IMG/VR virus record: IMGVR_UViG_2645727640_000047 | Coordinates: 1-6,492 of that record | Strand: one strand, 5' to 3' | Length of the DNA: 6,492 nucleotides | Origin: a virus | Lineage: Duplodnaviria; Heunggongvirae; Uroviricota; Caudoviricetes | Shown: positions 937 to 6,126 of the stretch, piece by piece | How positions within the stretch are numbered: the first letter of the stretch is position 1 | How the letters are laid out: every line of letters begins with the position of its first letter | The notes under the pieces: generated by a model | Database searches by the model: none | The model's input: the letters and a program-made list of their open reading frames with translations, nothing else | Told to the model about the DNA's origin: nothing | Position numbers and translations under genes: made by a program

Positions 937-959
937 AGCCGGAGCAATCCGGCTTTTTT
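937..959 (+). terminator. Rho-independent terminator after the ssb-like gene
   Basis: Stem AGCCGGA (937-943), loop GCAA, stem TCCGGCT (948-954), followed by a T-run through 959; it sits 16 nt after the stop codon. Confidence 0.6.
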
Positions 960-977
960 ATGGGTCCTCCCGGTGTA

Positions 978-1186
978 GTGACCTGCCACGGGGCGGGAGC
1001 GGCGCGGAAAAAGGCTAGTTTTTGCATTTTCATTCGTCATCATCATCTTTCTATAATGTTGAATTTTAAGTGTTTTTATTTTTGGTATGTTAATTTTGCT
1101 TGTTTTGTGTTCAACATACAGCGCGTTTTTTGACCTTTTTTAAAAGATATTTGCAAGATGCATTTTTAAAACATTCTGGAGCGGGT
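978..1186 (+). promoter_or_regulatory. Candidate lambda-like cos region (cosN-like 988-1003, AT-rich cosB-like 1020-1180) upstream of the Nu1-like gene; contains a perfect TATAAT at 1052-1057
   Basis: ACGGGGCGG at 988-996 is identical to the 9-mer that, as recalled, spans the lambda cosN nick (right end ...TTACG joined to left end GGGCGGCGACCT). It lies about 196 nt upstream of the Nu1-like ATG at 1187; lambda Nu1 starts at nt 191. TCGTCAT and GTTTTTATTT motifs recalled from lambda cosB also occur (1034-1040, 1072-1081). The right half of the putative cosN differs from lambda (GAGCGG versus CGACCT). Confidence 0.4.
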
Positions 1187-1672: not shown

Positions 1673-1956
1673 TAATGACCGAATCTGAAATACTGCGATT
1701 AATCCGCTGTGCTGGTGGAATTAGCCAGTTGGCTGACGAACAGGCCGCGCAGCCGGATACAGTCACCGCTGAAAATTACGCGCGTGTGGTGGCTGAGGTG
1801 ATGCGCCGTGACGGTATTGAGCTTAACGGCGTGGATATGCGCAACATACGAACCAGAGTCCTTGAGTTGCTGGCATACCGTCGCCGTTCTCAACAACGGA
1901 GGGAGAGCGCGAAAAATACTTATCAGTGGAAGAAGCCGGAATGGTTGCGGCGGTAA
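1669..1956 (+). CDS. Hypothetical 95-aa protein translationally coupled to the Nu1-like gene; weak resemblance to the N-terminal segment of lambda gpA (terminase large subunit)
   Basis: Its ATG (1669-1671) overlaps the upstream TGA (1670-1672). The N-terminus MIMTESEILRLIRCAGG...QPDTVTAENYA loosely parallels lambda gpA MNISNSQVNRLRHFVRAGL...PQTAVEWADANYY. It occupies the position that terL holds in lambdoid phages but is only 95 aa. Confidence 0.45.
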   Translation: MIMTESEILRLIRCAGGISQLADEQAAQPDTVTAENYARVVAEVMRRDGIELNGVDMRNIRTRVLELLAYRRRSQQRRESAKNTYQWKKPEWLRR

Positions 1957-2001
1957 TTTGTTGATATTCCTGATAGCGCAAAAGTGCGTTGGCTGGTGGG
2001 T

Positions 2002-2040: not shown

Positions 2041-2223
2041 CTACCCGTAGTTTGGGTAGTAAGAGTAACACCCAGATTTTGGGGCTTACTCGCGATACCC
2101 AAATAAAGGGTATCTGTGGAAGAAATATCGTTTCTCATATGTGAGTACCGAGGGCGGAATTCCGCCTTCGGTTACTTATTGTGCTCATGCACAGGGAGGG
2201 GCGGGTCAAATCCCTGTGACCTG
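2041..2223. other. Non-coding cluster of inverted repeats / hairpins at the right border of the inserted element
   Basis: CTACCC...GGGTAG (2041-2059); GATACCC-7nt-GGGTATC (2094-2114); perfect 14-bp palindrome GGCGGAATTCCGCC (2153-2166) extended by wobble to ACCGAG/TTCGGT (2147-2172); CACAGGGA-13nt-TCCCTGTG (2190-2218). Contains GGGGCGGG (2198-2205) and GTGACCTG (2216-2223), both also present at 978-997. No credible ORF. Confidence 0.45.
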
Positions 2224-2913: not shown

Positions 2914-2943
2914 ATGCAGGCATAAAAATTGGGGGAGGTGCCT

Positions 2944-5220
2944 ATGCTCAATCAAGAACTGGAACTCAGTTTAAATATGGCTTTCGCCAGAGCGCGCGAG
3001 CACCGTCATGAGTTTATGACCGTCGAGCACTTGTTACTGGCGCTGCTCAGTAACCCATCTGCCCGGGAGGCGCTGGAAGCGTGTTCTGTGGATTTGGTTG
3101 CGCTCCGTCAGGAACTGGAAGCCTTTATTGAACAAACCACACCCGTTCTGCCTGCCAGTGAAGAGGAGCGCGACACACAGCCGACGCTGAGTTTTCAGCG
3201 TGTACTGCAACGTGCGGTCTTCCATGTCCAATCCTCCGGTCGCAATGAGGTAACCGGTGCAAACGTTCTGGTCGCTATCTTTAGCGAACAGGAGTCGCAG
3301 GCGGCATATCTGTTGCGTAAACATGAAGTCAGCCGTCTCGATGTGGTGAACTTTATCTCTCATGGCACGCGTAAAGACGAGCCGACACAGTCTTCTGATC
3401 CTGGCAGCCAGCCAAACAGCGAAGAACAAGCTGGTGGGGAGGAACGTATGGAGAATTTCACGACGAACCTGAATCAGCTTGCGCGCGTGGGCGGAATCGA
3501 CCCACTGATTGGTCGTGAGAAGGAGCTGGAGCGTGCTATTCAGGTTCTCTGCCGTCGCCGTAAAAACAACCCGCTGCTGGTGGGGGAATCTGGTGTCGGT
3601 AAAACCGCGATTGCGGAAGGTCTTGCCTGGCGAATTGTTCAGGGCGATGTGCCGGAAGTGATGGCTGACTGTACGATTTACTCTCTCGATATCGGTTCTC
3701 TGTTAGCGGGCACTAAATATCGCGGCGACTTTGAAAAACGTTTTAAAGCGTTGCTCAAGCAGCTGGAGCAGGACACTAACAGCATCCTGTTTATTGATGA
3801 GATCCACACCATTATCGGTGCGGGGGCAGCGTCTGGTGGCCAGGTCGATGCGGCTAACCTGATCAAACCGTTGCTCTCCAGCGGTAAAATTCGCGTAATT
3901 GGTTCGACAACCTATCAGGAGTTCAGCAACATTTTCGAGAAAGACCGTGCTCTGGCGCGTCGCTTCCAGAAAATTGATATTACTGAACCGTCGATCGAAG
4001 AAACTGTTCAAATCATCAATGGCCTGAAACCGAAGTATGAAGCGCACCACGACGTGCGTTATACCGCAAAAGCGGTGCGTGCAGCGGTAGAGCTGGCGGT
4101 GAAATACATTAACGATCGTCATCTGCCGGATAAAGCCATTGACGTTATCGACGAAGCGGGCGCTCGCGCACGCCTGATGCCGGTAAGCAAACGCAAGAAA
4201 ACCGTTAATGTGGCGGATATTGAGTCCGTGGTGGCCCGTATTGCGCGCATTCCAGAGAAGAGTGTTTCTCAGAGTGACCGCGATACCCTGAAAAACCTCG
4301 GCGATCGCCTGAAAATGCTGGTCTTCGGTCAGGATAAAGCCATTGAGGCGCTGACTGAAGCCATTAAGATGGCGCGTGCAGGTTTAGGTCACGAACATAA
4401 ACCGGTTGGTTCGTTCCTGTTTGCCGGCCCTACCGGGGTCGGGAAAACAGAGGTGACGGTACAGCTTTCGAAAGCGTTGGGCATTGAGCTGCTGCGCTTT
4501 GATATGTCCGAGTATATGGAACGCCATACCGTCAGCCGTCTGATTGGTGCGCCTCCGGGATACGTTGGTTTTGATCAGGGAGGTTTGCTGACTGATGCGG
4601 TCATCAAGCATCCACATGCGGTGCTGTTGCTGGACGAAATCGAGAAAGCGCATCCGGACGTGTTCAATATTCTGTTGCAGGTGATGGACAACGGTACGCT
4701 GACCGATAACAACGGACGCAAAGCGGACTTCCGTAACGTGGTGCTGGTGATGACCACCAACGCCGGGGTACGTGAAACTGAGCGTAAATCCATTGGTCTT
4801 ATCCACCAGGATAACAGCACCGATGCGATGGAGGAGATCAAGAAGATCTTTACACCGGAATTCCGTAACCGTCTCGACAACATTATCTGGTTTGATCATC
4901 TGTCAACCGACGTGATCCATCAGGTGGTGGATAAATTCATCGTCGAGTTGCAGGTTCAGCTGGATCAGAAAGGTGTTTCTCTGGAAGTGAGCCAGGAAGC
5001 GCGTAACTGGCTGGCCGAGAAAGGTTACGACCGGGCAATGGGCGCACGTCCGATGGCGCGTGTCATCCAGGACAACCTGAAAAAACCGCTCGCCAACGAA
5101 CTGCTGTTTGGTTCGCTGGTGGACGGCGGTCAGGTCACCGTCGCGCTGGATAAAGAGAAAAATGAGCTGACTTACGGATTCCAGAGTGCACAAAAGCACA
5201 AGGCGGAAGCAGCGCATTAA
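2944..5220 (+). CDS. clpA: ATP-dependent Clp protease ATP-binding subunit ClpA, 758 aa
   Basis: The translation begins [35 protein letters not shown] and has two AAA+ modules with Walker A motifs ([16 protein letters not shown]). A strong Shine-Dalgarno GGGGGAGG (2931-2938) lies 5 nt before ATG 2944; the track's TTG start at 2929 is not used. Confidence 0.96.
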
Positions 5221-5432: not shown

Positions 5433-5520
5433 GTTCACTGCCATACAGGCAGCTTAGAAATCGACGGGGTGCGGTAAAACCTTTGCGAACGCGTTCACTG
5501 CCGTACAGACAGATAAAATG
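5433..5520 (+). CRISPR. Orphan type I-F CRISPR mini-array: 2 repeats, 1 spacer, no cas genes in the window
   Basis: Repeat 1 GTTCACTGCCATACAGGCAGCTTAGAAA (5433-5460); 32-bp spacer TCGACGGGGTGCGGTAAAACCTTTGCGAACGC (5461-5492); degenerate terminal repeat GTTCACTGCCGTACAGACAGATAAAATG (5493-5520). The repeat matches the 28-bp Ypest/I-F consensus GTTCACTGCCGTACAGGCAGCTTAGAAA with one mismatch. An AT-rich leader-like region lies at 5290-5432. The clpA-infA position is the known E. coli CRISPR3/4 (I-F) locus. Confidence 0.85.
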
Positions 5521-5563: not shown

Positions 5564-5651
5564 TGGCGGTGAGGGGGGGATTCGAACCCCCGATACGTTG
5601 CCGTATACACACTTTCCAGGCGTGCTCCTTCAGCCACTCGGACACCTCACC
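5564..5651 (-). tRNA. serW: tRNA-Ser (anticodon GGA), 88 nt including the encoded CCA
   Basis: The reverse complement reads GGTGAGGTGTCCGAGTGGCTGAAGGAGCACGCCTGGAAAGTGTGTATACGGCAACGTATCGGGGGTTCGAATCCCCCCCTCACCGCCA, with the anticodon loop CUGGAAA, a long variable arm and the T-loop GGTTCGAATCC. Confidence 0.95.

Positions 5652-5904: not shown

Positions 5905-6126
<222 letters not shown>

Follow-up and report, generated by a model that had tools for sequence, protein, structure and literature searches.

Genomic setting of the locus

The window considered here is the whole stretch of DNA that was analysed, 6,492 nucleotides in length, and all of it corresponds to Escherichia coli chromosome at the right end of an integrated element. 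The genes and features that define this setting are as follows.

955-1110, + strand: first cos, homologous to the cos-terS region of lambdoid phages (mEp460, phi458, Stx phages)
1187-1672: TerS-like DUF1441 gene, 3' of the first cos, matching DUF1441 and the phrog_141 small terminase family
1675-1956, + strand: ORF93, the last gene of the late operon, encoding a 93-aa protein with a basic C-terminus (phrog_1561)
2315-2422, + strand: integration module at attR, with arm-type repeats and core
2363-2392: three arm-type TTGTTCG repeats, with AACGGTGTAGTT/AATGGTGTAGTT also in the module
2405-2422: right copy of the att core AATGGTGTAGTTAATTTT, an 18-bp direct repeat duplicated at attL
2593-2913: clpS, 3' of the right end of the element
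2943-5220: clpA, 3' of the right end of the element
5564-5651, - strand: tRNA-Ser
5905-6123, - strand: infA

Strain 1223 is 100% identical to the window over 1900-2600, and a near-identical island sits between cspD/yljB and clpS in that strain. The genes annotated in this island encode a tyrosine integrase, an HTH regulator, an Icd-like protein, a member of the DNA primase family, an SSB, a DUF1441 protein and a 93-aa hypothetical protein, and their order is that of a Gram-negative phage-inducible chromosomal island (PICI). Such satellites were recognised by an integrase, a regulator, a primase-replication module with an origin, a late or packaging zone, att repeats, a size of about 8-10 kb and the absence of tail and lysis genes, and the strain 1223 annotation, the att repeat and the iterons at 1-220 agree with this description. 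The iterons, GGTGAACAG/CTGTTCACC, occur in both orientations upstream of the SSB gene and are likely the replication origin of the island; they resemble the TGTTCACC repeats of the P4 origin.

The interval 2041-2223, which the first-pass annotation had singled out, falls within this island at about 180 bp from attR, and host backbone is thereby excluded. That annotation had allowed for ordinary intergenic backbone conserved in strains without the element, which does not agree with the distribution found: 1975-2270 is present at a coverage of at least 80% in 349 of 5426 complete genomes, against 5425 for the clpS-proximal part. A tRNA fragment as the attachment site of the island was ruled out, since a tRNA/tmRNA scan gave tRNA-Ser as its sole match. 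Between clpA and tRNA-Ser lies an orphan type I-F CRISPR remnant (5433-5460 and 5493-5520), in which one repeat scores 45.8 bits against Rfam CRISPR-DR4; a 32-nt spacer separates it from a second, degenerate repeat, GTTCACTGCCGTACAGACAGATAAAATG, and the window contains no cas genes.

A hairpin-rich, non-coding border

The interval had been described as a hairpin-rich border with no open reading frame and a perfect 14-bp palindrome, and this description is accurate. The inverted repeats are in place at the following positions.

2042-2074/2080-2112: inverted-repeat arms
2133-2144: inverted repeat
2147-2160/2159-2172: inverted-repeat arms enclosing the perfect 14-bp palindrome GGCGGAATTCCGCC at 2153-2166
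2190-2197/2211-2218: inverted-repeat arms

The hairpin content is far above chance, as the DNA fold of exactly 2041-2223 reaches -39.2 kcal/mol, compared with -19.7 +/- 3.1 for shuffled sequences (z = -6.3), and none of 200 shuffles folded equally well. Folded as RNA, 1990-2270 reaches z = -8.4 for the + strand and -6.5 for the - strand.

The lack of an open reading frame holds in a practical sense. Mechanical frames of 40-82 aa run across 2041-2223 in several registers, as expected for palindromic DNA, and RefSeq annotation is absent from the interval in every listed genome. The most persistent frame (- strand, ATG at 2138) lacks a Shine-Dalgarno sequence, and only a truncated version of it is found in the diverged copy at locus L007; on these grounds a protein-coding gene was rejected. 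A scan of the whole window with the covariance models of Rfam 15 found no match in 1900-2400 at E <= 1.

A probable phage-type cos site at 2194-2277

When 1975-2270 was used as a query against 50,697 phage records, the sole part to find a match was positions 220-296 of the query, corresponding to 2194-2270 of the window. No phage match was found in those records for 1957-2193. The flagged interval is probably a composite stretch, spanning parts of two pieces that differ in function at the right end of a PICI-type satellite. The second of these pieces contains the following features.

2194-2277, + strand: cos site of the HNH-dependent SfII/SfV/ST64B/phiP27 type, comprising the whole phage HNH-terS intergenic region and including the conserved hairpin 2190-2218
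2237-2246, + strand: predicted 10-nt cohesive end (cosN), TGCCAGCCCC, assigned by homology

Over 77-83 bp (2194-2270/2277), the island is 94-96% identical to SfII, ST64B, 118970_sal3 and vB_EcoM-720R4, and 2194-2270 is 96% identical to SfI, 95% to SfV and SfIV and 82% to phiP27. In the phages, the matched block always lies between the gene for an HNH endonuclease and that for the small terminase (terS), or at the ends of a linear record. Homology begins about 20 bp past the stop codon of the phage HNH gene and ends about 20 bp short of terS. As these borders match the HNH-terS gap, the island appears to have captured exactly the non-coding cos unit. Conservation with the phage cos extends to the G-rich hairpin, the cohesive-end block of 10 nt and the ATACCCGCGAAAA flank, which is rich in T. 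Homology to P27/SfV/HK97-like cos regions whose ends are defined by the phage records suggests that 2194-2277 is probably a captured copy of the cos of HNH-dependent SfII/SfV/ST64B/phiP27 phages, at which cleavage and packaging of island DNA would be probable.

The position of the cohesive end can be predicted from two phage records. The phiP27 record annotates a 10-nt 'cos-site', CGCCCGCCCC, which aligns with 2237-2246, and the SfI record ends in ...CTGCCCGCCCC and starts with GTCGTTTTTTTATACCC, which places its ends exactly at the junction 2246|2247. In the SfV record the linear ends fall 17 bp to the left of this point, and the assignment thus relies on SfI and phiP27. Phage cohesive ends of this type read TGCCCGCCCC or CGCCCGCCCC, and the island sequence agrees with the TGCCCGCCCC of SfI and SfII in 9 of 10 bases. 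At position 2241, A is found in the window and in most satellite copies, and C in all phage copies and in five satellite loci; the A may be a satellite-specific discrimination base or may just reflect lineage.

Satellites that share the same backbone hold differing variants of this cos unit. Locus L027 carries the right half of the phiP27 cos base for base, and L160 and L032 carry further variants. The swapping of cos variants on one backbone argues for selection to match the available helpers. A diverged version occurs in the capsid-forming PICI (cfPICI) L005 between its own HNH and terS genes; the island of the window has neither an HNH gene nor a P27-type terS of its own, and no terL adjoins the cos. 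Just 3' of the cos, the segment 2278-2308 contains CGCTTCACGCTGGTGGGC, which is common to satellites and absent from the phages, and its counterpart at 2586-2615 of L027 is TGCGTTGCGCTGGTGGGC. This segment is possibly a satellite-specific cos flank on the first-packaged side. String searches of the literature with the palindromes and the cos core returned nothing relevant.

The lambdoid cos and the shared 8-mers

The first cos of the island belongs to a different phage group. Identity to the lambdoid cos-terS region (mEp460, phi458 and Stx phages) amounts to 73-82% between 962 and 1190, with a shorter match of 89% in phage HannyBb, and one record of the mEp460 type begins at the equivalent of position 986. 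Judged by sequence homology, a lambdoid and an HNH-dependent cos, unrelated to each other, appear to coexist in the island.

Two 8-mers are shared between this region and the flagged interval, as had been reported: GGGGCGGG is confined to 990 and 2198, and GTGACCTG to 978 and 2216. The accompanying caution that two such matches are not statistically compelling was well placed, as at least two shared 8-mers arose in 7% of trials in which both regions were dinucleotide-shuffled (p about 0.07). The proposal that they represent the two halves of the lambda cohesive end does not stand, because the two 8-mers are 10 nt apart (2206-2215). A lambda-type cos was taken to require the contiguous 12-nt end GGGCGGCGACCT with cosQ/cosB, together with homology to lambdoid cos regions, and 2041-2223 has no contiguous lambda-like cosN. 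Lambdoid homology belongs to 962-1190, and in the phage search 1975-2270 matched P27-type phages only. A lambda-type cos, or a rearranged copy of the first cos, was rejected for this interval given these phage matches and the near-chance occurrence of the 8-mers.

The 8-mer GGGGCGGG (2198-2205) is invariant in the phage cos regions, where it occupies the loop of the conserved hairpin 2190-2218, and it is the inverted complement of the phage cosN core CCCGCCCC. Judged from these alignments, it is a conserved flanking element of the P27-type cos rather than half of a lambda end. The idea of a second packaging site thus survives for the 3' end of the interval, through the homology of 2194-2277 to the cos of SfII, SfI, SfV, ST64B and phiP27, and fails in its lambda-like or rearranged form. 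The predicted cohesive end at 2237-2246 and part of the cos extend past 2223, where the flagged interval ends.

In strain 1223, the lambdoid cos segment is duplicated as an 80-bp direct repeat (L001 12520-12598 and 15055-15134; window 954-1033), and the repeats flank a 2.4-kb insert encoding a fusion of a ClpP-like protease and a major capsid protein. The island of the window has a single lambdoid cos copy and no protease/capsid fusion gene, and is therefore a deletion (or pre-insertion) variant.

The hairpin-cassette array

Upstream of the phage-homologous block, 1957-2193 forms an array of hairpin cassettes, the elements of which are the following.

1954-1990, + strand: proximal cassette, with a match to the IHF consensus at 1954-1966 (- strand, overlapping the ORF93 stop codon) and the hairpin AGCGCAAAAGTGCGTT at 1975-1990
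2002-2021: perfect 20-bp palindrome GAGTTGCAGATCTGCAACTC with a central GATC
2028-2045, + strand: tandem 9-nt repeat GAAATTACG/GAAACTACC
2040-2060, + strand: hairpin ACTACCC-N7-GGGTAGT
2063-2091, + strand: hairpin GAGTAAC..TTACTC
2094-2114, + strand: hairpin GATACCC-N7-GGGTATC
2121-2135, + strand: small hairpin AGAAA-TATCG-TTTCT
2147-2172, + strand: terminator-like hairpin of 11 pairs, 8 of them G-C, holding GGCGGAATTCCGCC and followed by the T-rich tail TACTTATTGT
2180-2193, + strand: hairpin TGTGC-TCAT-GCACA, the last satellite-specific element before the phage-homologous block

The array always lies directly 3' of an ORF93 homologue at the right end of a satellite. This pair is found in three kinds of satellite, namely PICIs, capsid-forming PICIs (in tqsA) and helper-embedded satellites (in a prophage terminase or capsid gene). 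A scan of genome contigs with the 93-aa protein found one locus only, and a protein search returned close relatives only (at least 80% identity), all of them unnamed. No sequence relative of ORF93 was found in the PDB, and its AlphaFold model is all-helical with a pLDDT of 65, a confidence too low to support a fold search.

Comparison of 160 loci from viral and metagenome collections revealed sharp mosaic borders at 1957/1960, 1990/1997, 2114/2119, 2194, 2277, 2308 and 2315-2420. A 123-bp module, 1997-2119 (1997-2039 and three hairpins), is 93-94% identical to its counterpart in capsid-forming PICIs and lies at varying distances from ORF93 across loci. Units composed of TAAC-N4-TGAT and a palindrome, similar to the proximal cassette, are repeated one to three times in other satellites; their TAAC-N4-TGAT motif often fits the IHF consensus and is followed by a palindrome with a G+C stem and an A/T centre, and some of these cassettes start with a remnant of the last codons of ORF93. 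The palindrome at 2002-2021 recurs with its flank, on its own, in the otherwise unrelated downstream regions of L168 and L080, and a covariance model of the array recovered no complete diverged copy, only this first palindrome cassette in the same two loci. The 9-nt repeat is present as a single copy in L007 and L166, from which its copy number appears to change by slippage.

These cassettes have been seen in satellites only; PICIs, capsid-forming PICIs and helper-embedded satellites all carry them at the equivalent place, in shuffled arrangements. Array-like cassettes occupy at most 6 places per genome and are found in 1945 of 5426 genomes, a count that includes phage cos matches. Downstream of the same 93-aa gene, the tail of L027 (2100-2480) carries TTGCGGGTTA/TAACCCGC repeats, and the tails of L032 (1770-1850) and L008 (3520-3580) carry GTGACA-type repeats (GTGACGGAGAGTGACACACAGTGACA).

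Function of the array

The most economical reading of the array is a 3' untranslated tail that ends in a terminator, and this reading is considered probable. The hairpin at 2147-2172 is the only terminator-like site found on the + strand in 900-2600 by a terminator scan, and it is the probable 3' end of the late operon transcript, as predicted from sequence. It is kept in variants of the array with changes of pairing or register; its T tail, TACTTATTGT, is weak and missing from L007. Where the satellite is helper-embedded, a further hairpin and a long T run lie between the same array and attR. The segment 1957-2193 would thus be the non-coding tail of the late (packaging) operon, which would stop and stabilise the late transcript and would insulate cos, att and the host clpS from read-through. 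About 200 bp of hairpins exceeds the needs of termination, and the array may therefore have another or an additional role.

One such role would be that of a functional structured RNA on the + strand (about 1990-2190), such as a small RNA derived from the 3' untranslated region or a cis-acting element of the late operon. The first-pass annotation had also raised a structured RNA, and the stability of the fold is extreme (z = -8.4). Folding favours the + strand over the - strand (-6.5), as do the G-U pairs, and the array terminates in a terminator-like hairpin. The sequence is 92-100% conserved across three satellite families, and the pair at the foot of hairpin 3 varies between C-G, U-A and the intermediate U-G. 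Covariation is weak, however. In an 18-sequence alignment of low statistical power (92-100% identical except for L007 at 79%), 97.9% of cells are paired, double changes affect only 2 pairs, and the score is matched by 37 of 500 shuffles. Several changes disrupt predicted pairs and are uncompensated: GAGTAAC carries a T to C change in 6 of 18 sequences, L007 is altered at the apex of hairpin 2, and L080 has an A to T substitution. Furthermore, indels of 9 nt delete arms of long-range helices in the minimum free energy (MFE) fold, the cassettes recur independently and not as a single fold, no promoter-like site was found on the + strand, and the Rfam scan gave no family. An RNA of this kind is thus an unlikely explanation of the array, and the evidence does not decide between a role in RNA and one in DNA. 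The long-range closing helix of the MFE fold (1991-1997/2239-2245) was rejected, as it pairs satellite-specific sequence with the cohesive end and the two partners recombine independently.

Alternatively, the palindromes could be protein-binding DNA that confers packaging specificity in the manner of cosB or cosQ, bound by ORF93, the TerS-like protein or IHF, comparable to the cosB/Rpp-TerS of PICIs. Island-specific cosB is known for PICI cos sites (PMC6739421). The palindromes at 2002-2021 (20 bp) and 2153-2166 (14 bp) are perfect through their centres, and in L007 the centre of the first shifts symmetrically from CAGATCTG to CAAATTTG, which fits a DNA dyad better than an RNA loop. Two TACCC-N7-GGGTA dyads lie 54 bp apart, the IHF consensus is matched at 1954-1966, and every sampled locus with the P27-type cos also has modules 1997-2119 and 2120-2193. 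Set against this association, module 1997-2119 also ends capsid-forming PICIs, whose cos is elsewhere, between HNH and terS, and helper-embedded satellites carry the module with no adjoining P27-type cos. The array lies upstream of cosN, on the last-packaged side, unlike the cosB of lambda, and the model of ORF93 as a candidate binding protein is of low confidence. A packaging-specific DNA site is accordingly held to be improbable, and the untranslated tail with its terminator is preferred.

Packaging of the island

Among the loci with enough flanking sequence, 19 combine the lambdoid cos, the TerS-like gene, ORF93, the hairpins and the P27-type cos, and in 10 the hairpin modules occur but this second cos is absent. 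Under the proposed mechanism, a P27-type helper phage would supply a P27-family TerS, TerL and HNH that would nick island concatemers at 2237-2246, and the nicked DNA would be packaged into helper phage particles, as in P4 and SaPIbov5. With the lambdoid cos and the TerS-like gene (955-1672), the island would have two unrelated packaging entry points.

The cos-like block could instead be an inert remnant, left by recombination with a P27-type prophage, that has no part in island transfer. The cohesive end differs from the phages by one base, and the island is already equipped with a lambdoid cos and a TerS-like gene. In EcCICFT073, one of the two cos sites is dispensable (PMC6092414). Against an inert relic, the block has kept 94-96% identity to the phage cos, with sharp borders that fit the phage non-coding unit, and it is kept in many satellites, with related satellites carrying variants that match different phages. 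Its position, at the right end, is one at which such a site occurs in several satellite lineages. These points make a relic quite unlikely, and a cos used by P27-type helpers remains the favoured interpretation of 2194-2277.

An att or recombination site of the island at 2041-2223, another option offered by the first-pass annotation, is barely credible: the interval is repeat-rich and near the right border of the island, but the duplicated core (2405-2422) and the arm-type repeats (2363-2392) both lie outside it, the integration module at 2315-2420 recombines independently of the hairpin and cos modules, and the same hairpin module occurs in satellites that use sites in tqsA, the terminase gene gpA and a major capsid gene.

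Satellites spread virulence and defence genes, and packaging signals decide which phages mobilise them. If the interpretation given here is true, a PICI that combines cos sites from two unrelated families of phages would be open to a broader range of helpers than the E. coli PICIs described so far. The variant cos cassettes on one backbone suggest that helper range evolves via swaps of 80-bp modules. Additionally, the right end of a satellite is recognisable in three families by the array and the 93-aa gene, which could help to find satellite borders. A more speculative and rather doubtful extension is a dual-helper satellite, with a lambdoid cos and its own TerS-like protein on the one hand and a swappable HNH-phage cos on the other, in which the array is an undescribed satellite cis element (RNA or DNA) linked to ORF93.

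Comparison with known systems

The hairpin cassettes resemble enterobacterial intrinsic terminators and REP/BIME-like palindromes in their G+C stems after the end of an operon, a nearby IHF consensus and multiple shuffled copies. They differ from REP/BIME-like palindromes in that the cassettes occur here in satellites only, and to our knowledge they have no similarity to the REP or ERIC consensus.

The closest counterparts of the second cos are the cos regions of SfII, SfI, SfV, ST64B and phiP27, which are HK97-like and served by a P27-family TerS, TerL and HNH; identity is 82-96% over the whole HNH-terS intergenic region. The island copy differs in that it lacks the adjoining HNH, P27-type terS and terL genes, is preceded by the hairpin array and not by the 3' end of an HNH gene, and has one substitution in its cohesive end (A at 2241).

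Satellites that carry the cos of their helper are already known. They include P4, with the cos of P2, and SaPIbov5, with the cos of HNH-dependent staphylococcal phages (cited in 10.1101/2022.09.08.507074). The island is like both in having a short non-coding copy of a helper cos within a small integrative satellite that has no matching terminase. It differs from them in host, phage family and island type, and in that the copy coexists with an unrelated cos and a TerS-like gene.

Among E. coli PICIs, which have functional cos sites, EcCICFT073 has two, both with a lambda/phi80-like cosN (PMC6092414, PMC6739421). A limited search of the literature returned no mention of a PICI with two heterologous cos types. 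The island shares with EcCICFT073-type PICIs its architecture (integrase, regulator, primase and origin, late zone), cos packaging and the presence of more than one cos, and differs in that both of their cos sites are lambda/phi80-like, whereas its own second cos is of the HNH-dependent family (PMC6092414, PMC6739421). The feature described here is a PICI with a putatively captured HNH-dependent phage cos besides a lambdoid cos and a TerS-like gene, with a conserved hairpin array upstream of the captured cos.
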